Assembly: GCA_051531975.1 (NCBI GenBank)
Contig: JAOPTT010000007.1
Coordinates: 1-24,928, forward strand
Reading direction: 5' to 3'
DNA length: 24,928 nucleotides
From: Spirochaetaceae bacterium
GTDB taxonomy: Bacteria > Spirochaetota > Spirochaetia > DSM-2461
Of this stretch, positions 1 to 19,266 are shown piece after piece. The notes under the pieces are model-generated. The model was not told where the DNA came from, did not search any database, and was given only the letters and a program-made list of their open reading frames with translations. A program made the translations under genes and the position numbers. Each line of letters begins with the position of its first letter. Position 1 is the stretch's first letter.

Positions 1-1197
1 TTTACAGAAGGGAATCCAATGAATGGTGTTGTTGAAGATACAATAGCACGATTTGAAGCGGATAATCCTAATGTGAAAATAAATCATGTTACGGCAATTG
101 ATAAAGATTACAAAACAAAAATGAAAGTAGCTATGGGATCTAAAACAGAAGGTGATGTTATGTTTACATGGGGTGGAACTATGTCTCTTTTACCAATGGT
201 TGAAGCGGGAAGAGTTGTTGATTTATCTCCATACTTAGATTCAGATCCTGAATGGGCAGCTAGATTTTTACCTAGTGCTATGGCTTTTGCAGAATTTCCT
301 GAATACCCTGGTACATGGGGAGTTCCTGTTTTTGCTGGTGCAAGTCTTGTTAGTATGAACTACCGGAAAGATATTTTTGCTAAGTATAATCTAAAAGAGC
401 CTCAGACATGGGATGAGTTTATTAGCGTTATGGATACTTTGTTAGCTAATGGTATTACACCTCTTGCACTTGGAAACAAAGTTATGTGGCCTGGATCTTT
501 CTGGTTCATGATACTTGTAGACCGAATTGCTGGACCATCTGCATGGGAAAAAGCATCAGTACCTGGTAGAGGTGGTTCATTTACTGATGCTGCTTTTATA
601 GAAGCCGGTGAAATGATTCAGGATCTTGTTGCCAAAGGATATTTTGGAGAAGGTTATAATAGTCGAAACTGGGAAGCTGGTGATACTAGAACTCAGTTAT
701 ACACTGGTGCTGCAGCAATGGAGTGGATGGGTAGTTGGACATTAGGTCAGTATGCTGTTGAGCAACCTGAAATGGAATTTGGTTTCTTTAACTTTCCAAG
801 TGTTCCGGGTGGTAAAGGTGATGTAAGTAACTCTATTGGAGCTATGGGTGGTCTTGAATTTGTTGTTACTAAAAACTGTGAGAACGTAGACTTAGCTGTA
901 GAATTTCTTAAGTATGCATCAGATGAAATCACTGTAAAGAATCAGGTTGTTAATGCAAATTCTGTAGCACCATTACATGGAGTAGAAAGCTTCTTAGGTG
1001 AAAATCCAATAATGCAGGATTTCTTTAGTAAAATTGTTGCTCCTGCAGCAAATGTACAATACTGGTTTCAAGAAGATGTACCAGCAGAAATTAGTCAAAC
1101 TTATCTTGATGTTGTAAAAGCAATCTTTGGTGGAGCTGATGTTCGGACTGAACTACAGAGACTTGAAGATAAAAAAATACAATACCACAATAGATAA
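1..1197 (+). CDS. Sugar ABC transporter substrate-binding protein (SBP family 1), 5'-truncated by the window edge
   Basis: The frame is open from base 1 (FTEGNP-MNG...) and there is no signal peptide at ATG 19, so the true start is upstream. Typical CUT1 SBP motifs: FEADNPNVKI, YRKDIFAKYNLKEPQTWDEF, GAAAMEWMGSW. Followed by two permeases. Confidence 0.9.
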   Translation, partial: FTEGNPMNGVVEDTIARFEADNPNVKINHVTAIDKDYKTKMKVAMGSKTEGDVMFTWGGTMSLLPMVEAGRVVDLSPYLDSDPEWAARFLPSAMAFAEFPEYPGTWGVPVFAGASLVSMNYRKDIFAKYNLKEPQTWDEFISVMDTLLANGITPLALGNKVMWPGSFWFMILVDRIAGPSAWEKASVPGRGGSFTDAAFIEAGEMIQDLVAKGYFGEGYNSRNWEAGDTRTQLYTGAAAMEWMGSWTLGQYAVEQPEMEFGFFNFPSVPGGKGDVSNSIGAMGGLEFVVTKNCENVDLAVEFLKYASDEITVKNQVVNANSVAPLHGVESFLGENPIMQDFFSKIVAPAANVQYWFQEDVPAEISQTYLDVVKAIFGGADVRTELQRLEDKKIQYHNR

Positions 1198-1207
1198 ATT
1201 GTTATAG

Positions 1208-1248: not shown

Positions 1249-1266
1249 AAATAAGCGGTGGTTTTA

Positions 1267-3008: not shown

Positions 3009-3013
3009 TCTAA

Positions 3014-3053: not shown

Positions 3054-3066
3054 CACTAGGAGTCAT

Positions 3067-4944
3067 ATGAAAATACGTTCAAAGTTTTTAACTCTCATAA
3101 TAGGTATAATGATATCCGTTATTGCATCTATCTCAATTCTGGTAATAAACAATCTCCACATTCGTGACATTGATAAAGAAAGATTACTTATGAATGATCT
3201 TCTCTTCGCTTATCATGAACTTTCAATTTATAATGAGCAGCTTTACACAAAAGATATAAAAAGAACTATCAATCGTTTTTCAGAATCGGTGGAACGGGCG
3301 GATCATCTGATTGACAAAATCAATACACTCAAATATCTCAATCAACTAAATCCATTAATTAGTGAATCTCTAGAGAGTATTTACATCTTGAAAGAAAACC
3401 AGCAAAGTCTCTTAAAACAAGTTCTTGATGGGGCTGATCTTCTTATTCGTGATTTTCAAGATATAGGCGGGGCCAATATTAGTTTCATCATGTCCGATCT
3501 ACCGATCAACCCTTTCATTGTAGATAGACCTGGTTATGAAAAGATTATAGATCATCTCTCCGAAGAAAGAAGTACTATTGAGTCTCTAGGTATTCATTTG
3601 GAGGGAAGTATCAATGTAATTATCACTCAGAATCAACTAATTTTAGAGGAGATAGAAAAGACTTCACAACGTAGTCTGACTTCATCGGTGTTAATATCAT
3701 CTATACTTATTGTTTTTAGCCTGATTGCAGCTGTATTCATTACTTCATCTATCGGAAAATCTATATTTCAGATTAGGCAGGAAGTCTCAAAACTGACCTC
3801 GGGTAATCTGACATTGGACTTTAATACAGAAGGAAATGATGAAATTACCGACCTCAAAAAGGATTTAAGTAGATTTCTTGTTAAATTGAATCAGTCAATT
3901 ACAGAAATAAAAAAAATATCTGTAATCAATTCCTCAATAAAAGAGAGTTTACTGGAATCAACAGAGGAATCATCTGCAGCTACGGGGCAGATAAAATCAA
4001 ATATTGATTCCATTAACAATCAGCTTCAGCTGTTAGATGATAGTATAAAGCAATCATTATCCTCAATTGAAACAATTGATAATATCATTACTGAAGAAAG
4101 TTCTCAGATCTCGAAGCAAATTACAATGGTAGAACAAGCATCAACATCTATTACCCAGATGATCAGCTCTATAAATTGTGTAGTAAAAACGACTGAAATC
4201 AATCAGGAAGCAACGGGCTTATTAGTGTCTATTGCCCAATCGGGAGGTCAGCAGATAAATAGTACATCGGTTGTTATAAATGAAGTAAAAGAGTACATTA
4301 GTGATATTAATAATATGGCTGATTTTATTCAATCCATTTCTCAGCAGACAAATTTACTCGCCATGAATGCCGCAATTGAAGCAGCTCATGCTGGAGACGC
4401 TGGAAAAGGATTCGCTGTTGTTGCCGACGAAATAAGGAAGTTAGCAGAAGCTTCTTCTAGGAGTTCAAAAGATATAAGAAGTACAATTAAGTCTATAATT
4501 CTTAAAATTACTGAAGCTGGTGATTCTTCCGACTCAACTATTGTTGCCTTTAAAAGTATTAATGAACAAATACAGAATGTAGAGGAAACACATTCTGGGA
4601 TTCACCAGAGTATGAAAGAACTGAAAGTTGGAAGCTCAAGCATTCTTGAAGCTATGTTTCATCTTAAGAAGTTTTCAAAGGATGTACAGGAAGGTTCCGA
4701 GAATATGAATGGTGCATCCGCTGTAGTAAGTTCCACAATAACTCAGGTTCAAAGGGTCTCTATCGAAACTATGTCAGGTATGAATGAAATGGTTATGGGA
4801 ATAAATGAAATCCTAGAATCCATGAACCATCTAACAGATATTTCAATGGAAATTCACGGTATCAGCGAAGAACTAAATAATTCGGTCTCATTTTTCAGGA
4901 CAAAGAGTATCACTGATAATGATCATGATACTTCTCGAGTTTAA
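3067..4944 (+). CDS. Methyl-accepting chemotaxis protein
   Basis: Two TM helices flank a periplasmic domain, followed by HAMP (GNLTLDFNTEGNDEITDL) and the signalling hairpin QTNLLAMNAAIEAAHAGDAGKGFAVVADEIRKLAE. AGGAG RBS. Confidence 0.95.
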   Translation: MKIRSKFLTLIIGIMISVIASISILVINNLHIRDIDKERLLMNDLLFAYHELSIYNEQLYTKDIKRTINRFSESVERADHLIDKINTLKYLNQLNPLISESLESIYILKENQQSLLKQVLDGADLLIRDFQDIGGANISFIMSDLPINPFIVDRPGYEKIIDHLSEERSTIESLGIHLEGSINVIITQNQLILEEIEKTSQRSLTSSVLISSILIVFSLIAAVFITSSIGKSIFQIRQEVSKLTSGNLTLDFNTEGNDEITDLKKDLSRFLVKLNQSITEIKKISVINSSIKESLLESTEESSAATGQIKSNIDSINNQLQLLDDSIKQSLSSIETIDNIITEESSQISKQITMVEQASTSITQMISSINCVVKTTEINQEATGLLVSIAQSGGQQINSTSVVINEVKEYISDINNMADFIQSISQQTNLLAMNAAIEAAHAGDAGKGFAVVADEIRKLAEASSRSSKDIRSTIKSIILKITEAGDSSDSTIVAFKSINEQIQNVEETHSGIHQSMKELKVGSSSILEAMFHLKKFSKDVQEGSENMNGASAVVSSTITQVQRVSIETMSGMNEMVMGINEILESMNHLTDISMEIHGISEELNNSVSFFRTKSITDNDHDTSRV

Positions 4945-4952
4945 CAATCTCA

Positions 4953-4990
4953 CAATAATTTAATTAGCTTAACAGTTAATTAAATTATTG
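4953..4990. terminator. Inverted repeat between the convergent MCP and gntR genes (likely bidirectional terminator)
   Basis: CAATAATTTAATTAGCT (4953-4969) and AGTTAATTAAATTATTG (4974-4990): 17 bp with one mismatch and a 4-nt loop. Very AT-rich, so weak. Confidence 0.55.
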
Positions 4991-5593
4991 GATATTTTTT
5001 TCCAATAGAGTTAATACCACTTCTTTGTCACACTTTTTTATTGCGTTTAAAATAGTTCTGTGTTCAGTATAACAATCCATTAAATTATCAAGTCGTGTAT
5101 ATCTAAGCATCATACGGTTTACTATAGTGGTCCATAATTCTAAGAGGTGTTTATCTTCATGTTTCTGTACAATTAATTTGTGAAACTGCAGGTCATAATC
5201 TATAATAGAATAAATATCATCACTCTCACAGGCTGAACGAAGATTCTCTACTGTGTGTTCCATATCAATAAAATCTTCATCTGTATATAATTCGAGGTTT
5301 TCGACAATGACAAAAAGTTCGATTTGTTTTCTAAATGCAATAATCATTGATAAAACATTTTCTCCAGGATGAGATGCAACTTTTACTCCCACATTTGGTT
5401 TTGATATCAAAAATCCACCTTTGGATAAAGATTTTAAGGCGTCTCTAACAGGACCTCTACTGACTTTGTATTTCTTTGACAACTCTATTTCCTTTAAAGC
5501 TTCACCTTCAGACAGAGCTCCGGTTATAATTTCCCTTCGAATTTGATTGGCTATTTGTTCAGATATTGTTAGAAATACTTTATTATTGTTCAC
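4985..5593 (-). CDS. GntR family transcriptional regulator (FadR/FCD-type C-terminal domain)
   Basis: N-terminal wHTH (ISEQIANQIRREIITG...EIELSKKYKVSRGPVRDAL). FCD motifs DLQFHKLI and EHRTILNAI. GTG start with AAGGA upstream. Confidence 0.93.
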   Translation of the reverse strand: MNNNKVFLTISEQIANQIRREIITGALSEGEALKEIELSKKYKVSRGPVRDALKSLSKGGFLISKPNVGVKVASHPGENVLSMIIAFRKQIELFVIVENLELYTDEDFIDMEHTVENLRSACESDDIYSIIDYDLQFHKLIVQKHEDKHLLELWTTIVNRMMLRYTRLDNLMDCYTEHRTILNAIKKCDKEVVLTLLEKNIQ

Positions 5594-5788: not shown

Positions 5789-5820
5789 ATTGTTGACAAT
5801 CTACAAAAAGAGTGTAGAAT
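5789..5820 (+). promoter_or_regulatory. Sigma70-type promoter of the catabolic operon, overlapped by an operator
   Basis: TTGACA (5793-5798), 16-bp spacer, TAGAAT (5815-5820). The operator-like TTGTTGACAATCTACAA (5790-5806) covers the -35 box. Confidence 0.75.
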
Positions 5821-5872: not shown

Positions 5873-7486
5873 ATGAAGAAAGCTTTTTTAATGGTTTCTA
5901 TGATTTTTTTTGGTATCGCTTTATTTGCAGCGGGAAATCAAGAAGAGGAGAAAACAACTGGTGAATTATCTGCAAAGGGGGTATTTCCTGTTATATCAGA
6001 ACCAATTACAGTTGATATGTTAATAGTCAAAAACCCACTAGTAAAAGATTATAATACAAATGCATTTGTAAACTGGTTTTCAGAAACTACTAATGTGAAT
6101 TTTACCTTTGATGAAATGACCCACGAAGATGAAGAACAAAAAGTTAACCTTTTACTTGCTGCTCAACAATATCCTGAAGTTATGCTGACATGGGGATTAA
6201 ATGCTGCACAACTAGCAGAATATGGTGGAAACGGTTCTTTGTTACGATTAAACGAACTAATTGAAGAACATGCACCAAATCTTACAAAACTTTTTAATGA
6301 TCATCCATGGCTAAAAGCCGGAGTGACTCTTCCTGATGGTGGAATCTATACATTGCCATGGGCTGAAGAAAATTATCAGACAACAATGCACTGGAGAATG
6401 TACGTTTATTCTCCTTGGATTGAGAAATGGGGTGGTGAACCTCAGACTACTGAAGAATTCTACCAATTCCTTAAATGGGTTAAAGAAGAAGATCCTAATG
6501 GTAACGGAGTAGCTGATGAGGTTCCTCTTAACTCTGCAAGAGGTTGGGGTAGTTCTGATGTTGTAACATTTCTTATGAATTCATTTGTCTATACAGATTA
6601 TGAAACATATCTTGATCCAAATAATGGTAAACTTGATTTTGCTCCAATATCCGAGGAGTGGAAAGAAGGTCTAAAATATATTGCAAAACTATATTCTGAA
6701 GGTTTAATTACTCCTGACGCCTTTACTGCACCTTATGGTGAGCAGCAGGCAATGGGTGAAAGCGATCCCGCTATTCTAGCAGCCGGAACTGCTGGTTGGA
6801 TGAATGAGATAGCTGTAAATTATGGCGATAGTGGTAGATATATGGAATACAATACTATGCCTCCTTTAGCAGGACCTGACGGTGCTAGGTATGCAGTAGT
6901 TGAAACTCCTTTTGTAAGAAATATGCTTGCTATAACTGATAGAAGTAATAATCCTATAGCAATTATTAAAGCTTTTGATATGTGTTATGATCCTGACGTA
7001 GTAAAGAAACTCTATTATGGAGTTGAAGGTGACCACTGGAGAAAAGCAGATGCTGGGGAATTAGGACTAAACGGAAAACAGGGTGACTTTATGGTTATTA
7101 AACCAAAAGGTGCTGAAGTTCAAAATGATATGGTTTACAACTTATGGCCATCTTTTAGAAGTGCTGATTTTTTTAACGGCATAGTTACAGATAATCACGA
7201 TACTAATCATGAAGCAAGACTTTTAAGATCAGCTCAGTCTTATGCTCCATATGCAACAAAAGAAGCATTAGGTCCCCTGTTTTTTACAGTTGAAGAGATT
7301 GAGACTATGCAGGATGAAACTGAAAATCTTCTTGAATCTGTTAGAAACTGGTCTGCCAGATTTGTTACAGGAACAGATGATATCGACGCTAGTTGGGATG
7401 AATATGTGGCTGAACTAGAAGGTTTAGGGTATAAAACATATCTTAAACTCAACCAGGAATCATATAATAGAGCTAGAGGGAAATAA
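5873..7486 (+). CDS. Oligosaccharide ABC transporter substrate-binding protein (LplA-like), probably for agar-derived oligosaccharides
   Basis: Signal peptide MKKAFLMVSMIFFGIALFA-AGNQE without Cys. Motifs EPQTTEEFYQFL, DPNGNGVADEVP, YGVEGDHW and WDEYVAELEGLG are typical of the LplA class. Substrate inferred from neighbouring genes. Confidence 0.88.
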   Translation: MKKAFLMVSMIFFGIALFAAGNQEEEKTTGELSAKGVFPVISEPITVDMLIVKNPLVKDYNTNAFVNWFSETTNVNFTFDEMTHEDEEQKVNLLLAAQQYPEVMLTWGLNAAQLAEYGGNGSLLRLNELIEEHAPNLTKLFNDHPWLKAGVTLPDGGIYTLPWAEENYQTTMHWRMYVYSPWIEKWGGEPQTTEEFYQFLKWVKEEDPNGNGVADEVPLNSARGWGSSDVVTFLMNSFVYTDYETYLDPNNGKLDFAPISEEWKEGLKYIAKLYSEGLITPDAFTAPYGEQQAMGESDPAILAAGTAGWMNEIAVNYGDSGRYMEYNTMPPLAGPDGARYAVVETPFVRNMLAITDRSNNPIAIIKAFDMCYDPDVVKKLYYGVEGDHWRKADAGELGLNGKQGDFMVIKPKGAEVQNDMVYNLWPSFRSADFFNGIVTDNHDTNHEARLLRSAQSYAPYATKEALGPLFFTVEEIETMQDETENLLESVRNWSARFVTGTDDIDASWDEYVAELEGLGYKTYLKLNQESYNRARGK

Positions 7487-7498
7487 TCTCTCTTTCTA

Positions 7499-7550
7499 AT
7501 AATAGAATGGTGGTGAGAACAGTATCATCATTCTATTATATTATTTTTTT
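7499..7550 (+). terminator. Stem-loop plus T-run after the second SBP gene
   Basis: ATAATAGAATGGTGGTG (7499-7515) pairs with TATCATCATTCTATTAT (7523-7539). The three non-Watson-Crick positions are all G-U on the + strand. Followed by ATTATTTTTTT. Confidence 0.7.
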
Positions 7551-7594
7551 GAAAATATATTTTGCTTAATGGCGAGGGATGGTTTTTTTTAGAA

Positions 7595-8521
7595 ATGAAA
7601 AACTTGAGAAAAATTAACAAATTAGGTATGTTAAAACAGAATTGGCAATTGTATGTCTTAGTTTTATTACCACTTATATTTATCATAATATTCAACTATG
7701 TTCCAATTTATGGAGCACAGATAGCATTCAGGCGATTCAGTGCCAGAGCTGGTATTTTGGATAGCAATTGGGTGGGTTTAAAGTATTTTATAAAATTCTT
7801 TCAAAGCCCAATGTTTAAGATAACTATGCTCAATACAATTAAGCTTAGTATAATCGAGATGGCTTTGACCTTTCCATTACCAATAATATTGTCCATATTT
7901 CTTCATTATATGATGAAGTTAAAATATAAAAGTGTTGTTCAAATGATAACATATGCACCATATTTTATCTCAGAAGTTGTTGTTGTTAGTATTTTATTTG
8001 AGTTATTATCGACCCGAACAGGAGCCATTAATAATTTGATTAGGATGTTTGGGGCAGAACCTATAAACTTCCTCGGGAATCCTGAGTATTTTAGAATGGT
8101 TTATTCAGTTTCCTCTGTCTGGCAGATTGTTGGATTCAGCTCTATTGTATATCTGTCTGCATTATCAAGTGTCAGTCCAAGTTTACATGACTCTGCAACA
8201 ATCGATGGTGCAAATAAATTACAGCGAATACTTTATATTGATCTACCATCAATTATGCCAATGATAATGATAATGTTGATTCTACGTGTTGGATATTTCA
8301 TGAATGTTTCATTTACAAAGGCGTTACTTCTACAAAACCCTCTGAACATATCATCCTCAGAAATTTTGTGGACCTATACTTATAAAATCGGATTTGCAAA
8401 TGGCTCTCCACAGTTCTCCTATGCTAGTGCCATTGGTTTAGTCGCAAATATAATCAATTTCACTTTACTTCTATTAGTTAATTATGCAAGTAAAAAAACA
8501 AGTAAAGTAAGTCTGTTTTGA
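7595..8521 (+). CDS. ABC transporter permease (LplB-like)
   Basis: WQLYVLVLLP, FNYVPIYGAQIAF, WVGLKYF and EAA loop LHDSATIDGA. Start uncertain (TTG 7562, ATG 7595 or ATG 7628). Confidence 0.92.
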   Translation: MKNLRKINKLGMLKQNWQLYVLVLLPLIFIIIFNYVPIYGAQIAFRRFSARAGILDSNWVGLKYFIKFFQSPMFKITMLNTIKLSIIEMALTFPLPIILSIFLHYMMKLKYKSVVQMITYAPYFISEVVVVSILFELLSTRTGAINNLIRMFGAEPINFLGNPEYFRMVYSVSSVWQIVGFSSIVYLSALSSVSPSLHDSATIDGANKLQRILYIDLPSIMPMIMIMLILRVGYFMNVSFTKALLLQNPLNISSSEILWTYTYKIGFANGSPQFSYASAIGLVANIINFTLLLLVNYASKKTSKVSLF

Positions 8522-9435
8522 GGATGTATAGAACCATGAAAAGTTTTAAAGATAAAAAAAAGTTAGATATCGATAAAGTTTTTGATATCTCAAATTACAT
8601 AATATTAGGTATTGTTCTGGTAGTGACAGCTTATCCACTAATATATATATTGAGCAGCTCCTTTTCAGGTTATGATGCTCTGATGAAAGGAAAAGTTGTT
8701 TTGTGGCCTGTAGATTTTTCTATAGAGGGGTACAGGGCTATCTTCAGTGATAACAGTGTAATAGTAAGTTTTTTTAACAGTGTTTTTATTGTTGTCTTTG
8801 GTACGATGCTTAATGTCTTTTTGACCATAATATGTGCTTATCCTCTTTCTAGGAAGGATTTCTATGGTAGAAATGTTCTTATGTTTATATTCAGCTTCAC
8901 TATGTATTTTAATGGAGGGTTGATACCAACATTTATGCTTGTGAAAAATCTTGGATTATATAATACCAGATTAGCTCTGATTCTACCCGGTGCTATAGCC
9001 GTATATAATATGATAATTGCAAAAACGTATTTCCAGCACAATATTCCCGATGAATTTTGGGAATCCGCAAAAATAGAGGGTTGTGATGATTTTACATTTA
9101 TATGGAAAATTGTTGTGCCTGTATCAAGGCCTATAATAGCTGTAATTACTCTCTATTATGCTGCGTATCACTGGAACTCTTGGTTTCAGGCTATGATCTA
9201 TTTGACAAATGATAGTCTGTATCCACTTCAGTTATACTTGCGAAATATATTAGTGTCATTGACTCAGGCAGCCTCTTCTATGGTTGATGCTGAAAATCAG
9301 GCCCATAGAACTAAAATCGTTGAAGTTATGAGATATTCTCTCATTGTCGTAGCAAGTGTACCAATGCTTATAGCTTATCCTTTTGTTCAGAAACACTTTG
9401 TTAAAGGGATAATGATGGGAGCCATAAAAGGATAA
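8518..9435 (+). CDS. ABC transporter permease (LplC-like)
   Basis: AYPLSRKDF, FTMYFNGGLIPT, EAA loop WESAKIEGC and YPFVQKHFVKGIMMGAIKG. The real start may be ATG 8524 or 8536. Confidence 0.92.
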   Translation: MRMYRTMKSFKDKKKLDIDKVFDISNYIILGIVLVVTAYPLIYILSSSFSGYDALMKGKVVLWPVDFSIEGYRAIFSDNSVIVSFFNSVFIVVFGTMLNVFLTIICAYPLSRKDFYGRNVLMFIFSFTMYFNGGLIPTFMLVKNLGLYNTRLALILPGAIAVYNMIIAKTYFQHNIPDEFWESAKIEGCDDFTFIWKIVVPVSRPIIAVITLYYAAYHWNSWFQAMIYLTNDSLYPLQLYLRNILVSLTQAASSMVDAENQAHRTKIVEVMRYSLIVVASVPMLIAYPFVQKHFVKGIMMGAIKG

Positions 9436-9440
9436 TTATT

Positions 9441-10571
9441 ATGAATAAAAAAGAACAGAGTTATGCAATGGATAGATTTAAGGTAGATGATGGGGATAAT
9501 CCCTTTTTTACCTTATTTAGATATAGTCCGATTAAAGGTTTAGGTTATGAACCGGGGATAGGTAGACGGGATCCAAGTAATATTATTAAAGTCCAGGAGA
9601 CGTATTATCTTTGGTACACCAGGATTAGTGGGGAAAAACCTGTAGGTGTTCCAAAGTCTAATGAGGCTAGAAGAGCCTATAAGTGGGATCTGGCAGAAAT
9701 TTGGTATGCAACATCAAAAGATGGTGTGGATTGGGAAGAGCAGGGTGTCGCTGTAAAAAGAGGTCAAAAAGGTTGTTTTGATGATCGAAGTGTTTTTACT
9801 CCTAATATTTTAGTTGCAGAGGGTAAATACTACTTAGTTTATCAAGCTGTTAAGGCACCATATGTTCACAGAACTAAAAATGTAGCTGCTATGGCTGTAT
9901 CGGATTCTCCAGAAGGTCCATGGACGAAGTTTGATTCACCTGTTTTGAAGCCAGATGATAGTGGTATCTGGTTTGGAGATGAACTGGATGAAGAAGTTGA
10001 GTGGACTAAAGTTGAAACTCCAGGTGCCTGGGATAGTATGAAAATTCATGATCCAGGATTCCTTGTAAGAGACGGGAAATACTGGCTCTATTATAAAGGA
10101 CAGCAGATAGGAAAACATCCCTGGGAATCAAAATGGGGAGTCGCCGTAGCTGATAAGCCAGAAGGACCCTATGTAAAAAGTTTGCTAAATCCTATAACCA
10201 ACAGTGGTCATGAGATTTGGATGTGGCCTTATAAAGGCGGTGTATGCGCTATGGTTGACTGGGCTGGACCTGAAAAAAATACAATTCAATATTCTGAAGA
10301 TGGATTAAACTTTGAAGTTGTCTCAGCTGTGGAGAACATTCCACCAGCAGGTGGAGCTTATATTCCAGACCTTTTTACCAATACAAAAGATGGAAAAGGA
10401 TTCACATGGGGATTATGCCATCACAGTGATGATGAATGGGATTTTTTAGTTCGTTTTGATTGTGACTTAGAACGGGGAAAAGAGAAAGATTTTATTACTG
10501 TATATAATGATTATGCAAAAATTAAAGCTGTTTATGCAAATAGAGAACTTTTTTATGCAGAAAATAATTAG
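9441..10571 (+). CDS. GH117 family glycoside hydrolase (putative alpha-1,3-(3,6-anhydro)-L-galactosidase / neoagarooligosaccharide hydrolase), cytoplasmic
   Basis: GH117 N-terminal SxAxxR signature (SYAMDR). Catalytic motifs RRDPS and NSGHE, plus WYATSKDG, DRSVFTP, YQAVKAPY, KIHDP and GPEKNT. No signal peptide. Confidence 0.88.
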   Translation: MNKKEQSYAMDRFKVDDGDNPFFTLFRYSPIKGLGYEPGIGRRDPSNIIKVQETYYLWYTRISGEKPVGVPKSNEARRAYKWDLAEIWYATSKDGVDWEEQGVAVKRGQKGCFDDRSVFTPNILVAEGKYYLVYQAVKAPYVHRTKNVAAMAVSDSPEGPWTKFDSPVLKPDDSGIWFGDELDEEVEWTKVETPGAWDSMKIHDPGFLVRDGKYWLYYKGQQIGKHPWESKWGVAVADKPEGPYVKSLLNPITNSGHEIWMWPYKGGVCAMVDWAGPEKNTIQYSEDGLNFEVVSAVENIPPAGGAYIPDLFTNTKDGKGFTWGLCHHSDDEWDFLVRFDCDLERGKEKDFITVYNDYAKIKAVYANRELFYAENN

Positions 10572-10616
10572 ATAAAACAGTAAATAAATAATATTATATA
10601 ATTTTGCAAACTATGT

Positions 10617-10634
10617 ATTGTTAACAATTGACAG
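10617..10634 (+). promoter_or_regulatory. Putative GntR operator and internal promoter element upstream of the cycloisomerase
   Basis: Perfect palindrome ATTGTTAACAAT (10617-10628) extended by TGACAG; contains TTGACA (10628-10633). A matching -10 box is not obvious. Confidence 0.65.
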
Positions 10635-10683
10635 TATACGGTTTGTGAATGTAAGTATCACCATAAGATAAACGGAGTTAAAT

Positions 10684-11787
10684 ATGGAAAATAAATCCAC
10701 AATTACTAAATTGAATACACAATACTTTAAAGTTCCATTAAGTGAAGCATTGGTTGATGCGGTTCATGGTACACATACCCATTTTGAACTAATTACGGTT
10801 ACTATCGTATTGTCGGATGGAACCGAAGGTACTGGATATACATATACAGGCGGGACTGGTGGAAAAGCAATTTATCAGGTTATAGAGCACGATTTAAAAC
10901 CGTGGATTATTGGAAAAGACGGTAGTCAGATTGAAGGATTATGGGAGGCCATGGGGTGGAAAATCCATTATGTTGGAAGAGGTGGTATAACATCTTTTGC
11001 TATTTCTGCTATAGATATTGCACTCTGGGATATCCGAGCAAAAAAAATTAATCAGCCTTTATGGAAACTTGCTGGTGGGGCGGATAATTCATGTAAAGCT
11101 TATTATGGCGGAATTGATCTTGATTTCCCGTTGGAAAAATTATTATCAAATATCCAACATCAGCTAAATAATGGTCATAGGGCTATCAAAATAAAACTGG
11201 GGAAAGAACATCTATCTGAAGATCTTGAGAGAGTGAAAGCTGTTAGAGAAATGATAGGTCCCGATGTTGTCTTTATGGTTGATGCAAATATGTCTTGGAC
11301 TGTTGAAAAGGCTATAAAAGCAGTGAAAGAACTGGAAAAATATAATATATTCTGGCTCGAGGAACCAACAATCCCAGATGATTATTACGGAATTGCACAG
11401 ATTGCAGATTCATCATCCGTTGCCCTTGCTATGGGAGAAAATCTTCATACAATATATGAACATAAACATGCATTACAGTTCAGTAAAATAAGTTTCATAC
11501 AGCCCGATGCCTCTAATATCGGTGGTATTACTGGTTGGCTTAAAGTTGCAAACTTAGCAGAAGCTTTCAATATTCCAGTCTGTTCTCATGGTATGCAGGA
11601 GCTACATGTAAGTCTTCTCTCTGCTGTTCCACACTCGGGATATTTGGAAATACACAGTTTTCCAATAGATCAATATACGGAAAATCCCATCAAAGTTGAA
11701 TGTGGAAGAGTCAAAGCTCCAGATACACCTGGAACTGGAGTTGTTTTTAATTGGGAAAAACTAAATCCCTTCAAAATTGAGCTATAA
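10684..11787 (+). CDS. 3,6-anhydro-L-galactonate cycloisomerase (mandelate racemase / enolase superfamily)
   Basis: MR-subgroup motifs KIK, DAN, WLEEP, GEN, QPD and CSH. Segments HGTHTHFELIT, GTGYTYTGG, IHYVGRGGI, GGIDLDFPLEKLL, GENLHT, HGMQELHVSL and LEIHSFPID closely match the Vibrio AHG cycloisomerase as I recall it. Flanked by two GH117 genes. Confidence 0.85.
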   Translation: MENKSTITKLNTQYFKVPLSEALVDAVHGTHTHFELITVTIVLSDGTEGTGYTYTGGTGGKAIYQVIEHDLKPWIIGKDGSQIEGLWEAMGWKIHYVGRGGITSFAISAIDIALWDIRAKKINQPLWKLAGGADNSCKAYYGGIDLDFPLEKLLSNIQHQLNNGHRAIKIKLGKEHLSEDLERVKAVREMIGPDVVFMVDANMSWTVEKAIKAVKELEKYNIFWLEEPTIPDDYYGIAQIADSSSVALAMGENLHTIYEHKHALQFSKISFIQPDASNIGGITGWLKVANLAEAFNIPVCSHGMQELHVSLLSAVPHSGYLEIHSFPIDQYTENPIKVECGRVKAPDTPGTGVVFNWEKLNPFKIEL

Positions 11788-11790
11788 TAA

Positions 11791-11847
11791 GATAATTATG
11801 GAGTTCAAGGATATACAATTACAGTTGATGGAGGCTGGTTAATTTGA
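11791..11847 (+). pseudogene. 3' remnant of a kduD-like short-chain dehydrogenase gene
   Basis: The intergenic bases translate to DNYGVQGYTITVDGGWLI-stop, matching the KduD C-terminus (DYVNGYTIAVDGGWLAR). Its TGA overlaps the next gene's ATG (TGATG). Confidence 0.75.
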
Positions 11848-13085
11848 TGAAAAAAAAGAATATATTTCCTGCACAATACCCTACAAAAAAACCAACAAAT
11901 ATTGATTTGAGTCCTGCAATGGAGAGAATCTATGATTATTGGGATGCTACAGATGATAGAAATAATGAATTTTTTACAAATTTTAAGTATTCACGTATCA
12001 CTGGAATTGGAAAAGAAAAATCTGTATCCCGGAGAGATGCTTCTAAGATCTTAAAAAAAGATGATAATTATTATGTCTGGTATACTAGAAGAGAGACCGA
12101 CTGTCCTCCTGTAGGAATGGATAAATGCACTGATGAATTTCCTGCAGTTGACTGGGACTTGGCTGATATTTATTATGCCACCAGTAAAGATGGATTTGAC
12201 TGGCAGGAGCAGGGTATTGCCGTTGGTCGTTCACCTAAAGGTGAATATGGAGACAGGTCTGTAACAACTCCAGATATTCTCTATTATAAAGAGAAATATT
12301 ATCTCTATTATCAATCTTTTACAGGCAGGTTTACACCTGAAAAGGGAGACTATTGTGATGTAAGTATGTCATGGTCTGATTCTATTTGTGGACCATGGAT
12401 AAAATGTGAAAAATCAGTTGTTGATCTAGGTTCAGAAAATGATTGGGATGGCGGAGCAATACATGATCCTTATCCCCTAGTATATCAGGGTAAAATATGG
12501 ATGTTTTATAAAGGGCAACCAATAAAAAATGGAAGGGATTGTATGATTAGAGCTCAGGGTGTAGCTATCGCCGAAGACCCACTTGGTCCATATGTTAAAC
12601 ATGACCTAAATCCTCTGTTAAACTCAGGACATGAAACCTGCCTATACCCATATAAACAGGGGATAGCAGCTCTACTTATCTTTGACGGTCCAGAAAAAAA
12701 TACGGTACAGTTTGCTCCTGATGGTATTAATTTTGAGCCAAAAGCTTCAGTTCAGTTACCACCGATAGCTCCAGGACCATTCTGTCCTGACGCATTTGCC
12801 GATAATGGTGATGGTAAGGGCATATCATGGGGTTTGTGTCATATGGGTGCTAATACTGTCTCTCCTGATAGCGAGAGGAAAATTGTTGAACACTCCTCTT
12901 TCCTCGCTCGTTTCGACTGTGATCTACATGTTAATATAGATAGACAGTATTTTAAAAATCCCCATGACCACGTGGGGCGTTTTGGTGAAGAAGTTTTTTT
13001 TCAGGAAAAGATGATGCTGGAAGATGAACCCAAAAATAAAATTATTACTGAAAGTAGTTTGCTAGATAGCGAAACGATTATATAA
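11847..13085 (+). CDS. Second, divergent GH117 family glycoside hydrolase, cytoplasmic
   Basis: LSPAMER (SxAxxR), SRRDAS, WDLADIYYATSKDG, DRSVTTPDIL, IHDPYP, NSGHET and RFDCDL. No hydrophobic signal peptide. GGAGG at 11830-11834; start is TTG 11844 or ATG 11847. Confidence 0.85.
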   Translation: MKKKNIFPAQYPTKKPTNIDLSPAMERIYDYWDATDDRNNEFFTNFKYSRITGIGKEKSVSRRDASKILKKDDNYYVWYTRRETDCPPVGMDKCTDEFPAVDWDLADIYYATSKDGFDWQEQGIAVGRSPKGEYGDRSVTTPDILYYKEKYYLYYQSFTGRFTPEKGDYCDVSMSWSDSICGPWIKCEKSVVDLGSENDWDGGAIHDPYPLVYQGKIWMFYKGQPIKNGRDCMIRAQGVAIAEDPLGPYVKHDLNPLLNSGHETCLYPYKQGIAALLIFDGPEKNTVQFAPDGINFEPKASVQLPPIAPGPFCPDAFADNGDGKGISWGLCHMGANTVSPDSERKIVEHSSFLARFDCDLHVNIDRQYFKNPHDHVGRFGEEVFFQEKMMLEDEPKNKIITESSLLDSETII

Positions 13086-13105
13086 GAAAATTGGAGGAAG
13101 ATAAT

Positions 13106-15016
13106 ATGGTGTACGGTATTAGAAACAGAATATTAAGAGTAAATTTAACTACTAAGGAAATATCAGTAGAAAACCCTGGTGAAGAAATATTTAAAAAATA
13201 TATAGGTGGGAAAACCCTAGGAGCCTATTATCTGAATAAGGAGGTAGACCCTAAGTGTGACCCCCTATCTCCTGAGAATAAAGTTTTTGTATTTCTTAGT
13301 CCATTAACAGGAGCTCCTATTCCTGGAACTTCCCGTTTTTCTGTACTCTCCAAATCTCCCATCTCAGATGCTTTTGGTGATGGAGAAGCGGGTGGTTTTT
13401 TTGGCCCAGAACTAAAATTTGCTGGCTTTGATGGTATCATCATTGAAGGGAAGTGTGATTCTCCTTGTTATCTCTCAATTATTGATGATGATATTCAAAT
13501 TAAAGATGCAGCTAATCTTTGGGGAAAAGATACGGGAGTTGTTGAAAAACTGATCCGTGAAGAAAATGAACAACCTAGAATGAGAGTACTCCAGACAGGT
13601 CCTGCTGGGGAAAATATGGTACGTTTCGCCGCTTTGACAAATGAGCTTAAACACTGGAATGGTCGATGTGGTCATGGTGCGGTTTTTGGTTCAAAAAACC
13701 TTAGGGCGATCGCGGTTAAAGGTTCTAGCAAAATTGTAATGAAAAACGGGGCCGCAGTTAAAGAGTATATAAAAGAATTTTCTGCTAATGCTAGAGAAAG
13801 TCAGGCTCTTAAAGATTTTGGTAATTGTGGAACTTCTGGTTTAGTGGAAATTTTAAGTGATATGGGAATTCTTCCTACAGAAAACTTCGCAAAAGGTTCA
13901 TTTGATCATGCTAAAGATATTGATGGTATAAAAATGAACAATGAACTTCTAGTAAAGAGAGAGAGTTGTTTTGCCTGTCCTGTACGTTGCAAGAGGGTTG
14001 TTGAATCTAAAGATGAAAAAATGCCTATCGACAAAGATTATGGTGGCCCTGAATATGAAACTCTTGGAGCACTAGGTTCTAATTGTGGTATTAAAGATAT
14101 TAAAACTGTCTGTAAGGCTAATGAATTATGTGGCCGATATGGTATGGATACAATTGGTGCAGGTATGACGATTGGTTTTGCCATAGAGTGTTATCAGAAA
14201 GGCTTTCTTACAAAAGAAGATACAGGTGGTTTGGAACTGAAATTTGGTGACGGTGAACTTCTTCTGCAGTTGCTGGAAATGATTGGAAAACGTGAAGGTT
14301 TTGGTGATGTTTTAGCAGAAGGAAGTTACCGTCTATCTGAAAAGCTTGGTGAAGAGACAAAAGCATTCTGTATGACTTCAAAAAAGATGGAGTTTGCCGC
14401 TCATGAGCCCCGTGGGAAATGGAATGTTGGTCTTGGATATGCCCTTTCTCCAAATGGAGCTGATCATGTTGTTGTTGAACATGATCACGGTTTTATTGGA
14501 GAACCGGATATAACAGATGATAAACAAAGTGGCGATCTGATTTATCCACTCTTTAAGTTTGGGATAAGAAAATCAATTGATCCTTTGAGTCTTGATAATG
14601 ATAAACTTAGACTGTTTGTAGTTCTGCAGAAACTTTGGTGTCTTTGTGATACTCTCGACGTCTGTATATTCCTAGCTGCTCCAAGTAGAAGGTTCTCATC
14701 TATTGAAGATCTACTTAATGCTTTAAATAACATTACAGGATGGGATCTTAGTCTTATTGAATTGATGCAAGTAGGTGAAAGAGCTACTGTTCTAGCAAGA
14801 CATTTTAATGCTCGCTGTGGAATAACTTCTAAAGATGAAACATTACCAGATCGATCTTTTGAGCCTCTGGAAAATGGACCTCTAAAAGGGATTGCCATAG
14901 ACCGAGAAGCGTTTGAAAAAGCTAAACGACTCTATTACCAGATGACAGGAATGGACAATGAAGGCAGGCCTTTAGATGGTAAAATGGTGGAGATGCAACT
15001 TGAGGAACTGATGTAG
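13106..15016 (+). CDS. aor: Aldehyde:ferredoxin oxidoreductase family protein (tungstopterin, 4Fe-4S)
   Basis: ILRVNLT, YIGG, DPLSPEN, GGFFGPELKFAGFDGIIIEGK, GPAGENMVRFA and GAVFGSKNLRAIAV. Fe-S ligands CFACPVRC plus the distal DTLDVC. Also GPEYET, GMDTI and GADH. GGAGG at 13093-13097 favours ATG 13106 over TTG 13091. Confidence 0.93.
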   Translation: MVYGIRNRILRVNLTTKEISVENPGEEIFKKYIGGKTLGAYYLNKEVDPKCDPLSPENKVFVFLSPLTGAPIPGTSRFSVLSKSPISDAFGDGEAGGFFGPELKFAGFDGIIIEGKCDSPCYLSIIDDDIQIKDAANLWGKDTGVVEKLIREENEQPRMRVLQTGPAGENMVRFAALTNELKHWNGRCGHGAVFGSKNLRAIAVKGSSKIVMKNGAAVKEYIKEFSANARESQALKDFGNCGTSGLVEILSDMGILPTENFAKGSFDHAKDIDGIKMNNELLVKRESCFACPVRCKRVVESKDEKMPIDKDYGGPEYETLGALGSNCGIKDIKTVCKANELCGRYGMDTIGAGMTIGFAIECYQKGFLTKEDTGGLELKFGDGELLLQLLEMIGKREGFGDVLAEGSYRLSEKLGEETKAFCMTSKKMEFAAHEPRGKWNVGLGYALSPNGADHVVVEHDHGFIGEPDITDDKQSGDLIYPLFKFGIRKSIDPLSLDNDKLRLFVVLQKLWCLCDTLDVCIFLAAPSRRFSSIEDLLNALNNITGWDLSLIELMQVGERATVLARHFNARCGITSKDETLPDRSFEPLENGPLKGIAIDREAFEKAKRLYYQMTGMDNEGRPLDGKMVEMQLEELM

Positions 15017-15086: not shown

Positions 15087-15116
15087 GATGGAGTATAAAA
15101 TTATATATACTCCATC
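15087..15116. terminator. Inverted repeat between the convergent aor and antiporter genes
   Basis: GATGGAGTATA (15087-15097) and TATACTCCATC (15106-15116): perfect 11 bp. Confidence 0.6.
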
Positions 15117-16161: not shown

Positions 16162-17472
16162 TTATGCAAATGCTGGTATTAACGCTAGTAGAATTCCGGC
16201 TGCAACTGCAGAACCAAGAACTCCAGCTACATTTGGGCCCATTGCATGCATTAACAGATAGTTTGAAGAGTCCTCTTCAAGACCAACTTTATTGGCAACC
16301 CTAGCCGCCATAGGTACTGCAGAAACTCCTGCAGCTCCAATAAGAGGGTTTATAGGGGTTTTTAAGAATTTATTCATAAGTTTTGCTAATAAAACACCAC
16401 AAGTAGTTCCAATACTAAATGCAACTAAACCTAGTGCTAAAATACCAAGAGTTTTAGGGTCTAAAAACTTTTCTGCGGCCATTTTTGAACCAACAGAAAG
16501 CCCTAAAAATATTGTTACAATATTAATTAGCTCACCTTGCATTGTACTTGCTAATCTATCTACTTTTCCACACTCTCTAGCAAGGTTTCCAAACATTAAA
16601 GCACCAACTAGTGGAGTTGCAGTAGGTAGTAAAATTATACATATAATCAGTACAACTATAGGGAATATTATTTTTTCAGCTTTTGATACAGGTCTAAGCT
16701 GAACCATTTTAATCTTTCGTTCTTCTTTAGTTGTTAAAAGCCTCATTATTGGAGGTTGAATTATCGGTACTAACGCCATATATGAATATGCAGCAACCGC
16801 AATAGCTCCAAGTAAGTTAGGGGCCAGTTTAGATGCTAAAAATATAGCTGTAGGACCATCTGCGCCACCAATTATTCCAATTGCACCAGCCTCTGGAAGT
16901 GTAAAATCTAGTATTCCATTTTGACTTAAAGCCAATGCACCTAAAAGAGTTGCAAAAATACCAAACTGGGCAGCTCCACCGAGTAGTGCTGTTTTAGGGT
17001 TTGCTAAAAGTGGACCAAAGTCTGTCATAGCTCCAACACCCATAAAAATAATCAGAGGAAATAGACCACTTTCTACTCCAAATCCATATAATTGCCCAAC
17101 TAAACCACCAAAAGATGTAAAATGTCCTTCGGCAATACCAACAAAACCATTTAGATTTCCATCGGTTATACCTAGCTCTTTTGCTTTTCCTAATACACCG
17201 GAACCATAATGAGCTAGAGTATTAGTATCTATACTTTTTACAAAATTAACAGTGGCATCAGCAATACCGGCAGTTGGAATATTTGCAAATATAGCTCCCA
17301 TACCAATAGGTACTAATAAAAGTGGTTCAAAGTCTTTTTTAATTGCTAAAAAAAGCAATGTAAGTCCAACTAATATCATAACAACTTGGCCAAGAGCAAA
17401 GTTCATAATTCCAGTTGACTTCCACACTTCTACTAAAGCCTCTCTAATATTTAATTGTAGTAGTAGGTTCAT
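16162..17472 (-). CDS. oadB: Sodium ion-translocating decarboxylase beta subunit
   Basis: [43 protein letters not shown] and [13 protein letters not shown]. Confidence 0.96.
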
Positions 17473-17475
17473 AGC

Positions 17476-19266
17476 TTATCCTTGTATCTCAAACAGAGCT
17501 TGTCCGGCTGTAACCTGATCACCTTGGGCTACATTTATTCTTGCTACTATTCCTGTTTTTTTAGCAGTAATAGGGGATTCCATTTTCATTGCTTCTAAAA
17601 CCATAACTTCATCGCCTTCTTCTACGGAGTCTCCAGCTTCTACACTAACTCTAAGAACAAGACCGGGAAGAGGAGCAGATGTAACATCACCGCCACCACT
17701 TGTAACTGGTGCAGCAGCTTGTTTATCAATACCTAATGCAACATCTACGTTATACTCTTTACCATTTACAACAGCTTTCCCATCTTTCATTTCAACAGCA
17801 TAACTTTTACCATTAACAGAAACTGTATAACCACCATCTGGGTCACCATTTGTACATGGTTCAGTACTAACTCTTCTAATATTTTCTACAGCTTTACCTT
17901 GTAAAAATGTTATACCCTTTTCACGACATGCTGCTGCAATAAATATATTTTCATCATTTATAGGTAAGTTAGCTTTTTCAAGCATTGTTGTAGCGGATTT
18001 TACACCTAAATCAGAATCTCTTCCATTTATATCAACTACTTTTTCAGTTGTAGGTTCTAATCCTAATTGTTCCTGTGCAATCTCTACTATTTTAGGATCC
18101 GGAGCACATGGAGTTTTCCCAAAATATCCAAGAACCATCTTTCCGTAGCCATCCGCAATTTTTTTCCATGGACCGAACATTACATTATTAAATGCTTGCT
18201 GAAAATAGAACTGAGAAACAGGTGTAACAGATGTACCAAATCCACCTCTTTCAACAACTTCTCCCATAGCTTTAGTAATATCAGCATATTTATCCATTAA
18301 ATTATTATCTCTTAACATCTGAGTATTTGCAGTTAATGCTCCACCAGGAAGAGGGGAGAATGGAATAAGAGGGTTAACAGCCTTTGCTTCTGGAGGCATA
18401 TAATAATCTTTTAGACACTCTTTTAATACTTCTTCTACTTCAATAATTTTTACAGGATCAACACCTAAATCATAATCTGAACCTTTTAATGCATGCCACA
18501 TAGTCATAACATCTGGCTGACATGTTCCACCTGACACAGGTGCTAAGGATAAGTCTATTTGTGAAGCTCCAGCAACAAGTGCCGCTTTATATTGCATTAC
18601 ACTAATTCCTGCTGTTTCATGGGAGTGGAATGTTATGTTCATCTCCTCTCCTAATAGTTTCCTTGCAGCTTCAATAGTGTCGTAAACTTTATTTGGTGTA
18701 CTTGTTCCAGATGCATCTTTAAAACAGATTGAATCAAATGAAATATTAGCATCTAAAATCTTTCTTAAAACACCGGTATAGAATTCTGCTGTATGAGCAC
18801 CTTCACAACCAGGTGGTAGTTCCATCATGGTAATACATACTTCATGTTTTAATCCCGCATTAACTATACACTCTCCTGAATATATAAGATTATCCACATC
18901 GTTAAGTGCGTCAAAGTTTCTAATTGTTGTCATACCGTGTTTTTTAAACAGATCAGCATGTAGTTTAATTATATCTCTTGGTTGGGAAGCTAAACCTACA
19001 ACATTAACACCTCTTGATAGAGTCTGTAAATTTGCATCAGGCCCAGTTGCTTTTCTAAATTCGTCCATAACGTCAAAACCATTTTCGTTACAATAAAAGA
19101 AAGGAGCTTGAAATCTTGCACCACCACCGGCTTCAAAATGTCTGATTCCTGCGTTTGTAGCTACTTCAACTGCTGGTAGAAAATCTTTTGATAATACCCT
19201 GGCTCCATAAACAGATTGAAATCCGTCCCTAAATGCTGTAACCATAAAATTGATACGTTTTTTCAT
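17476..19266 (-). CDS. oadA: Oxaloacetate decarboxylase alpha subunit / PycB-type carboxyltransferase with biotin-carrier domain
   Basis: Carboxyltransferase motifs FRDGFQS, CFKDASG, FHSHET, PGG and VTPVSQ. C-terminal biotinyl domain with EAMKME. Lies between oadG and oadB. Confidence 0.9.
   Translation of the reverse strand: MKKRINFMVTAFRDGFQSVYGARVLSKDFLPAVEVATNAGIRHFEAGGGARFQAPFFYCNENGFDVMDEFRKATGPDANLQTLSRGVNVVGLASQPRDIIKLHADLFKKHGMTTIRNFDALNDVDNLIYSGECIVNAGLKHEVCITMMELPPGCEGAHTAEFYTGVLRKILDANISFDSICFKDASGTSTPNKVYDTIEAARKLLGEEMNITFHSHETAGISVMQYKAALVAGASQIDLSLAPVSGGTCQPDVMTMWHALKGSDYDLGVDPVKIIEVEEVLKECLKDYYMPPEAKAVNPLIPFSPLPGGALTANTQMLRDNNLMDKYADITKAMGEVVERGGFGTSVTPVSQFYFQQAFNNVMFGPWKKIADGYGKMVLGYFGKTPCAPDPKIVEIAQEQLGLEPTTEKVVDINGRDSDLGVKSATTMLEKANLPINDENIFIAAACREKGITFLQGKAVENIRRVSTEPCTNGDPDGGYTVSVNGKSYAVEMKDGKAVVNGKEYNVDVALGIDKQAAAPVTSGGGDVTSAPLPGLVLRVSVEAGDSVEEGDEVMVLEAMKMESPITAKKTGIVARINVAQGDQVTAGQALFEIQG

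Follow-up and report, generated by a model that had tools for sequence, protein, structure and literature searches.

A gene for an aldehyde:ferredoxin oxidoreductase (AOR), the last gene of a predicted agar-sugar operon in a member of the Spirochaetaceae, probably encodes a ferredoxin-linked oxidoreductase for 3,6-anhydro-L-galactose (L-AHG); this would be the sole enzyme for conversion of L-AHG to 3,6-anhydro-L-galactonate in this genome. The operon lies in a stretch of 24,928 nucleotides (the window) that forms the start of contig JAOPTT010000007.1 (here C7) of assembly GCA_051531975.1. What the genes are, how they are linked and conserved, and that no gene of the AHG dehydrogenase (AHGD) type is present are direct observations, from which we infer the substrate, electron acceptor and metal of the AOR. 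Roughly half of agarose consists of AHG, and the only known route for its breakdown, to our knowledge, goes through an NAD(P)-dependent dehydrogenase that has been studied in aerobic and facultative bacteria. The canonical L-AHG pathway consists of AHGD, 3,6-anhydro-L-galactonate cycloisomerase (ACI), L-2-keto-3-deoxygalactonate (L-KDGal) 5-dehydrogenase, a KduD-type reductase, 2-keto-3-deoxygluconate (KDG) kinase and 2-keto-3-deoxy-6-phosphogluconate (KDPG) aldolase (PMC10163077, PMC9706016).

Open reading frame (ORF) listing and family scans place a binding protein, two permeases, a first GH117 (GH117a), ACI, a second GH117 (GH117b) and the AOR in one co-oriented operon on the + strand, 5873-15016 (Table 1). 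The initial annotation had described the two GH117 genes, a cycloisomerase-like gene and an intact AOR gene as co-oriented, and all four are present as described; the operon is longer than it stated, beginning at 5873 with the binding protein and permeases. In a search of solved structures, the closest relatives of GH117a are the anhydro-alpha-L-galactosidases 4AK5 and 3P2N. GH117b matches 4AK5 at E 2.9e-66, behind the Zobellia chains 4U6D and 4U6B. The alignment of ACI to 5XD7 spans residues 4-365, and its next matches are 2OVL (3e-106) and the L-talarate/galactarate dehydratase 2PP0 (1.4e-56). A 20-nt spacer separates the GH117b stop codon (TAA, 13083-13085) from the AOR start (ATG, 13106), and the terminator and hairpin scan finds no terminator-like site within it, in agreement with the earlier description; the sole strong hairpin near the AOR, at 15087-15116, is 3' of its stop codon. 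The window was also said to lack any gene of the aldehyde dehydrogenase (ALDH) superfamily, and there is indeed no match in a Pfam scan of 19 of the 24 listed ORFs (the other five being shadow or duplicate frames) or in a six-frame PF00171 search of contig C7.

The rest of the genome (5.46 Mb in 29 contigs, 98.5% complete) yields no AHGD-type ALDH either, by six-frame PF00171 search, blastp or six-frame tblastn. PF00171 has six matches genome-wide, namely ProA, two acylating enzymes and three non-acylating ALDHs on contigs C9, C5 and C25, with none on C7. The AHGD-type reference group consists of ALDHs encoded adjacent to or near ACI in four other genomes, 45-61% identical among themselves; the best solved relative of one of these is the Vibrio enzyme 6J75 (E 5e-193), which serves as the AHG dehydrogenase reference in PMC10163077. 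The genome's own ALDHs are 21-35% identical to this group, the best of them 31-35%. AHGD-type genes in other ACI-bearing genomes are 43-100% identical to the query, and the next best proteins reach at most 37%. The most AHGD-like of the genome's own ALDHs, on C9, is found in an operon with a two-domain ABC ATPase, and its best solved relative is 8HAP. Its orthologues, 40-58% identical, occur in 12 other genomes of a 401-genome class sample, and none of the 12 carries ACI. The C5 ALDH has as neighbors an OYE/2,4-dienoyl-CoA-reductase-like gene, a TetR regulator and an efflux carrier. A search of the 37 other genomes of the family for orthologues of the C9 and C5 ALDHs found none, a result uninformative by itself.

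Further steps of the pathway are encoded close by. The end of contig C9 (L102:17319-17456) and the start of C7 (window 1-22) share an exact 22-nt overlap, and the frame of the binding protein that opens the window reads through the junction, so the assembly gap hides nothing and the locus extends upstream. On C9, four co-oriented genes diverge from the junction binding protein: a Zn-dehydrogenase (ZnADH), KduD (413.5 bits for TIGR01832, whose cut-off is 338.85), a 75-aa ThiS-like ORF and ThiF/MoeB. Canonical GH2-ZnADH-SDR-AHGD-ACI clusters of Bacteroidota hold a ZnADH that shares 46-50% identity with this one. Two pairs of KDG kinase and KDPG aldolase are encoded elsewhere, one on C4 and one on C20. 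Comparison with the six-enzyme canonical pathway therefore finds every step to KDG encoded in the locus except that of AHGD.

Genes worX and thiF have been described adjacent to the class I tungsten oxidoreductase (WOR) CsWOR87 (PMC13328260), and the ThiS-like/ThiF pair on C9, co-oriented with two enzymes of the AHG pathway, matches that description. Such ThiS-like ORFs, 73-75 aa long and ending in VGAG rather than GG, are conserved between AOR or sugar genes and ThiF (Table 1). The initial annotation had pointed to tungstate transporter and pterin-cofactor genes as worth seeking, and candidates for both are present: a TupA-like substrate-binding protein (224.7 bits, below the cut-off of 400) and a TupB-like permease adjoin MoaA, MoaC and MoeA, and WorX/ThiF are found in both of the genome's AOR-bearing sugar clusters (that on C20 is described below). 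The genome also carries five [FeFe]-hydrogenase-domain genes, PFOR and one cytochrome bd, with no heme-copper oxidase found in it, and looks anaerobic and ferredoxin-based.

The AOR itself appears to be a class I, WorL-type member of its family. It matches PF02730 (AFOR_N) with 239.4 bits over positions 2-198 of 199 and PF01314 (AFOR_C) with 405.4 bits over 2-385 of 385, and its best match of known structure is the Pyrococcus enzyme 1AOR (E 4e-127); the NCBIfam model for glyceraldehyde-3-phosphate:ferredoxin oxidoreductase (GAPOR) scores just 25.7 bits. The cysteines of CxxCxxxC and a distal C, which we take to be the [4Fe-4S] ligands, are kept (CFACPVRC for CYACPIGC of 1AOR, DTLDVC for DSAGLC), as are a Glu (GPEYE in both) and a His (GADH for GGCH) that presumably correspond to active-site Glu313 and His448 of PfAOR. 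The AOR family has two pterin-binding DxxGL(C/D)x motifs, the second of which reads DTLDVCI here. No gene for a small Fe-S or flavin subunit stands beside the AOR gene, which is flanked upstream by GH117b and downstream by a convergent Na/Ca exchanger; class I enzymes consist of WorL alone, with ferredoxin as acceptor (PMC13328260).

The locus is conserved in a sister species, represented by three metagenome contigs that are identical over the locus and 83% identical to the window in nucleotide sequence. There a single operon holds GntR, the importer, GH117a, ACI, ZnADH, KduD, GH117b, AOR, WorX and ThiF; taken with the C9/C7 layout, it links the same gene set in two arrangements. The GntR/FCD regulator is 85% identical between sister contig and window, and the 537-aa binding protein 91%. 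Between the two species the AOR has the lowest dN/dS of five genes compared (0.030, the other four 0.049-0.059). Linkage of the AOR to GH117 and cycloisomerase genes, which the initial annotation had named as a check, is thus kept in the sister species, and another clade of AORs adjoins ACI or GH117 in three other genomes.

A parallel arrangement occurs within the same genome, which has three AORs (in the window, on C20 and on C8), the C20 copy being 54% identical to that of the window. On C20 the AOR gene comes first in a co-oriented cluster with a GntR/FCD regulator, an enolase-superfamily gene, a KDPG(al) aldolase of the Eda type, a KDG(al) kinase (PfkB), a 73-aa WorX and ThiF. The best solved relative of its cycloisomerase-like gene is 5OLC (E 4.2e-110, the next match 1.2e-85), which is DauB, the 3,6-anhydro-D-galactonate cycloisomerase of a system whose core also includes the ALDH DauA (PMC5698469). 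The full set of DauA, DauB, DauC and DauD is not present at C20; the DauB-like enzyme, kinase and aldolase are, with an AOR rather than an ALDH, and no ALDH or DauA is found in the cluster. It would appear that the C20 AOR stands in the place of DauA. Since both a kinase and a phospho-aldolase are encoded, the only free aldehyde of the C20 route would be the anhydro-sugar itself. Genes divergent from it encode a sulfatase, a two-component system, an ABC importer, a six-hairpin glycosidase, a further sulfatase and a GH2. L051 (genome G032), L053 (G037) and L055 (G034) hold AORs with 42-45% identity to the C20 paralogue, in operons that also encode a CUT2-type sugar ABC importer, an enolase-superfamily enzyme with 39-54% identity to the DauB-like gene, and an SMP-30/gluconolactonase, and no NAD-dependent sugar dehydrogenase; these operons may represent an AOR-initiated oxidative sugar route.

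Across the class sample, ACI (E <= 1e-80) is found in 16 of the 401 genomes. We examined up to 20 kb around each of 17 ACI matches, together with the AOR-bearing contig C199 of genome G026. An AOR adjoins ACI in G000, G034 (divergently) and G335, where the two form an operon with a monosaccharide-type ABC importer; in G026 an AOR gene is directly 3' of GH117 on a separate contig. GH117 was not found in G335 or G034 with the query used, so the free sugar is probably imported there. The AORs of G335, G034 and G026 are about 35% identical to that of the window and form a clade of their own (support 100) in a FastTree phylogeny of 61 AORs, whose support values are SH-like only; the window AOR falls in another clade, with those of C20, G003, and Bacteroidota and Kiritimatiellales. 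The separate clades suggest two recruitments of an AOR. Whole-genome searches for AHGD-type ALDH and AOR divide the 16 ACI-bearing genomes into three with AHGD-type ALDH only (G017, G144, G164), four with both (G003, G026, G034, G273), five with AOR only (G000, G335, G150, G327 and, as a fragment, G218) and four with neither (G113, G138, G159, G380); G335 accordingly has no AHGD-type ALDH. Loci L097, L099 and L100 (of G138, G380 and G159, respectively, with 66-69% GC) hold GH117s, GntR and ACI, with no AHGD-type ALDH or AOR found; GH117 is present in three copies in the G138 and G380 loci and in two on the cut G159 contig. In L088 (G150) and L089 (G113), ACI and GntR adjoin a TRAP (DctPQM) transporter, an arrangement that suggests uptake of the sugar acid, for which no oxidation step is needed. 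Orthologues of the GntR/FCD regulator, 37-51% identical, adjoin ACI in L085, L088, L089, L090, L094, L097, L099 and L100.

Outside the lineage, a scan of species genomes finds eight loci with AORs 60-64% identical to that of the window, in six Bacteroidota genomes and one of the Kiritimatiellales (G401-G407). ACI is present in all seven (61-65% identity). A sample of 200 further genomes from G401's order (Bacteroidota) yielded neither AORs of this clade nor ACI. The association of AOR and ACI at the level of genomes is strong; related genomes are not independent observations. The AOR locus on contig 1 of Labilibacter has pterin-biosynthesis genes in a fuller set, along with regulators or receptors of the PUL type, and those of Saccharicrinis and SZUA-561 have genes of the same size in the same positions, a match in size and position only. 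On contig 22 of G402 (Saccharicrinis sp.; L060 and L148-L149), some 19 kb separate an AOR and its pterin-biosynthesis genes from a canonical GH2-ZnADH-SDR-AHGD-ACI cluster, the two apparently sharing the contig, with a hybrid two-component regulator and a SusC-like receptor in between. The congener G003 (71% complete) has a cluster of ACI, GntR, dehydrogenases, GH2 and GH117 without an AOR or other oxidizing enzyme, and an AHGD-type ALDH (47% identical) elsewhere in its genome. GH2, an SBP-like protein and two family-III CoA-transferases, joined in G003 by enoyl-CoA hydratase, form a module beside AORs of clade A (L046, G003:C21, 2999-11629; L061, 12568-19857), that is, in the congener and a Bacteroidetes metagenome-assembled genome; it has no counterpart in the window's genome.

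Free AHG exists largely as the open-chain aldehyde or its hydrate, which suits an AOR. In the route we propose, the ABC importer (5873-9435) would bring in oligosaccharides, from which GH117a and GH117b would release L-AHG. The AOR would make 3,6-anhydro-L-galactonate, passing electrons to ferredoxin and not to NAD(P)+, and ACI would open the acid to 2-keto-3-deoxy-L-galactonate. ZnADH and KduD from the adjoining contig would carry this to KDG, and the KDG kinase and KDPG aldolase encoded elsewhere would yield pyruvate and glyceraldehyde-3-phosphate. WorX and ThiF, predicted to share a transcript with ZnADH and KduD, would serve in maturation of the pterin cofactor, with tungstate supplied by the TupA-like transporter, and reduced ferredoxin could feed the [FeFe] hydrogenases. 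The C20 paralogue would do the same for 3,6-anhydro-D-galactose in its dau-like cluster.

Several observations weigh against this assignment. The first pterin motif of the AOR is GRYGMDT rather than DxxGLD, with Gly at the position of the first Asp. An AHGD just 40% identical to the Vibrio enzyme can be functional (PMC9706016), so identity thresholds for recognizing AHGD are soft, and the three non-acylating ALDHs in the genome are without an assigned substrate. In none of the eight Bacteroidota and Kiritimatiellales loci is there GH117 or ACI within 10 kb of the AOR; ThiF/MoeB stands beside it in six of the eight (family-confirmed in five, the sixth being L061), and in L062 and L063 its neighbors are unrelated. 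In G003 the AOR (71% identical) is likewise found apart from GH117 and ACI, beside GH2, two family-III CoA-transferases and enoyl-CoA hydratase. Canonical AHGD is directly beside ACI in all seven of G401-G407, and the initial annotation's expectation that AOR and AHGD exclude each other fails: both are carried by these seven genomes and by four of the 16 ACI-bearing genomes of the class, and in all of these the AOR is not needed for the AHG step. The four ACI-bearing genomes with neither enzyme imply that other ways round the step exist, and one could exist here too. The proposal that the AOR supplies the missing aldehyde-to-acid step thus stands in part, favored by the lack of AHGD in this genome, by synteny and by the C20 parallel, and fails in the exclusivity it assumed. 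"In place of AHGD" holds for this genome and G335, not for the whole enzyme clade, which is not a simple alternative to AHGD, many of its carriers keeping both. On genomic evidence the clade is nevertheless tied to anhydrogalactose metabolism, by operon structure, paralogy, conservation and co-occurrence. The most economical reading is that the AOR is a ferredoxin-linked isoenzyme for anoxic growth, which would have become the sole enzyme in this lineage and in G335.

It is rather unlikely, if still worth serious consideration, that AHG is oxidized here by a generic ALDH (C9, C5 or C25) or an unrecognized dehydrogenase, one of the genome's own ALDHs perhaps being promiscuous enough to do so, and that the AOR is a broad-range aldehyde scavenger kept in galactan loci because AHG or its breakdown products (e.g. 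furan aldehydes) are reactive. Aldehyde detoxification is the role most often assigned to characterized class I WORs (PMC13328260), the genome has three non-acylating ALDHs without an assigned substrate, and both the 11 examined genomes with AOR and AHGD together (G003, G026, G034, G273, G401-G407) and the four with neither fit this explanation. Against it, the genome's own ALDHs reach only 31-35% identity to AHGD types, none of the 12 other genomes with a C9-type ALDH carries ACI, and the context of the C5 gene is that given above. Nor would a scavenger be expected twice, with its own WorX/ThiF, in two different anhydrogalactose clusters, or under the strongest purifying selection in the operon; and an enzyme that oxidizes AHG "for detoxification" carries out the very reaction proposed here.

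A narrower role, with lower probability still, is that the AOR complements AHGD by acting on a different aldehyde derived from red-algal galactans, such as modified anhydrogalactose (e.g. methylated or sulfated, released by GH117b) or the anhydrogalactose at the reducing end of oligosaccharides of the agarobiose type. Its position after GH117b, a member of an uncharacterized clade (4U6D, 4U6B), agrees with such a role, which would also explain why AOR and AHGD occur together in ACI-bearing Bacteroidota. It would, however, leave this genome and G335 without an enzyme for plain AHG though this genome keeps ACI, ZnADH and KduD, and in G335 ACI and AOR accompany a monosaccharide-type importer with no GH117 found. 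Aldehyde oxidoreductases oxidize glyceraldehyde in some archaeal non-phosphorylative variants of the Entner-Doudoroff pathway, and the AOR might by analogy oxidize glyceraldehyde, lactaldehyde or glycolaldehyde from non-phosphorylative cleavage of 2-keto-3-deoxy acids. Some dau clusters do lack dauC, and a non-phosphorylative variant has been suggested for them (PMC5698469). With a PfkB-type KDG/KDGal kinase and an Eda-type aldolase beside the AOR on C20 and a second such pair on C4, the encoded route is phosphorylative and gives glyceraldehyde-3-phosphate, with no free aldehyde released; we consider this role, which the initial annotation had offered as an alternative, highly improbable and have set it aside.

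Oxidation of AHG by the AOR would differ from known systems in the enzyme used for one step. With the L-AHG pathway of the Vibrio sp. EJY3 type (AHGD, EC 1.2.1.92) this genome has in common GH117, ACI, a ZnADH orthologue, KduD, and the kinase and aldolase; it differs in having no AHGD-type ALDH and in having an AOR with WorX and ThiF in the locus. Like the dau cluster of Zobellia galactanivorans (PMC5698469), C20 has a DauB-like cycloisomerase, a KDG(al) kinase, a KDPG(al) aldolase and sulfatases nearby; unlike it, C20 lacks DauA, is headed by an AOR paralogue, and has as neighboring glycosidases a six-hairpin enzyme and a GH2, not the Zobellia set, with GH127 elsewhere (C9). The window AOR shares with the class I enzymes PfAOR, CsWOR87 and BmWOR (PMC13328260) a single WorL-type subunit with both AFOR domains, the Cys, Glu and His residues, and WorX and ThiF nearby, but it sits in a sugar catabolic operon and has an altered first pterin motif. 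GAPOR and GOR replace NAD-dependent GAPDH in some anaerobes, and both types can coexist in one organism; the logic proposed here is the same, a ferredoxin-linked AOR-family enzyme for an NAD(P)-dehydrogenase step, with an AOR of a different clade, a putatively non-phosphorylated substrate and a different pathway.

In a 2026 classification, the known roles listed for the AOR family are detoxification, glycolysis, sulfonate oxidation and growth on aldehydes; those of characterized class I enzymes are given as aldehyde detoxification or GAPOR-type glycolysis (PfGAPOR and CbGOR being listed as glycolytic), not free-sugar oxidation, and just 5 of 92 clades of the tungsten oxidoreductase family have a physiological role (PMC13328260). 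A full-text literature search found no paper linking AOR or tungsten enzymes with catabolism of anhydrogalactose or carrageenan or with GH117, and bears out the statement that no AHG-oxidizing AOR had been described. The available supplements of PMC13328260 do not mention PF13378, MR_MLE, cycloisomerase, PF04616, Labilibacter or Saccharicrinis, and its full gene-neighborhood dataset could still bear on novelty. What appears new is a non-orthologous enzyme for one step of a known pathway, which would give a known family a new physiological role.

If the assignment is correct, it would describe a new ferredoxin-yielding fermentation of agar, through an oxygen-sensitive tungsten-type enzyme, in a marine fermenter. 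It would help explain use of agar and carrageenan by strict fermenters in sediments and guts, would alter how much energy and hydrogen that fermentation yields, and would give the tungsten oxidoreductase family a physiological, growth-supporting role. Seaweed biorefining would also gain a new enzyme for the step at which red seaweed's industrial fermentation is blocked (PMC9706016). More speculatively, and on balance doubtfully, marine anaerobes may on two or more independent occasions have taken up AOR-family tungstoenzymes as anhydro-sugar:ferredoxin oxidoreductases, for the first oxidative step in breaking down both L-AHG (from agar) and D-AHG (of the carrageenan type). The related AORs encoded in operons with a monosaccharide importer, an enolase-superfamily dehydratase and a lactonase may belong to a wider class of ferredoxin-reducing, aldose-oxidizing enzymes that makes oxidative sugar-acid pathways pay under fermentation.

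Table 1. Features of the window, in window coordinates, with ThiS-like ORFs of other loci in the last row
Feature	Position	Strand	Evidence
Sugar ABC substrate-binding protein	1..1197	+	SBP_bac_1, E 1.8e-32; first 46 codons on end of contig C9
Two ABC permeases	1258-2157, 2157-3008	+	BPD_transp_1
Methyl-accepting chemotaxis protein, co-oriented behind first ABC set	3067..4944	+	MCPsignal E 3.5e-28, HAMP
GntR/FCD regulator, divergent from operon	4985..5593	-	GntR and FCD domains
Promoter-like site ahead of operon	5793..5820	+	TTGACA-16-TAGAAT, 11/12; consensus match only
Oligosaccharide-type substrate-binding protein, 537 aa, first operon gene	5873..7486	+	SBP_bac_8
Two ABC permeases	7562-8521, 8518-9435	+	BPD_transp_1
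GH117a, alpha-1,3-(3,6-anhydro)-L-galactosidase type (predicted L-AHG release)	9441..10571	+	4AK5 E 1.6e-99, 3P2N E 1.9e-87
ACI, 3,6-anhydro-L-galactonate cycloisomerase (EC 5.5.1.25)	10684..11787	+	5XD7 E 5.3e-152; MR_MLE_N, MR_MLE_C
GH117b, clade of uncharacterized Zobellia GH117s	11844..13085	+	4U6D E 5.1e-108, 4U6B E 8e-106; start codon uncertain
Shine-Dalgarno GGAGG, 8 nt 5' of AOR ATG	13093..13097	+	read in sequence
AOR-family (class I WOR-like) aldehyde:ferredoxin oxidoreductase, 636 aa; proposed L-AHG:ferredoxin oxidoreductase	13106..15016	+	AFOR_N, AFOR_C; 1AOR E 4e-127
11-bp palindromic hairpin between convergent AOR and Na/Ca exchanger genes; likely two-way terminator	15087..15116	.	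hairpin scan
ThiS-like (WorX) ORFs	L102:14551-14778, L010:5057-5278, L106:11919-12146, L059:3799-4023	-, -, +, +	match WorX of PMC13328260

Other features of the window include a 17-bp stem-loop at 7499-7539, within the operon and just 3' of the binding-protein gene; stem-loops are often seen after highly expressed genes for substrate-binding proteins. The chemoreceptor gene that directly follows the first binding-protein and permease set (19-4944) may provide binding-protein-dependent chemotaxis to algal oligosaccharides. Downstream on the - strand (16162-19266 and 19594-22311), the window encodes the beta and alpha subunits of a Na+-translocating oxaloacetate decarboxylase and a 905-aa CHASE2 adenylate/guanylate cyclase, which are unrelated to the AOR operon.

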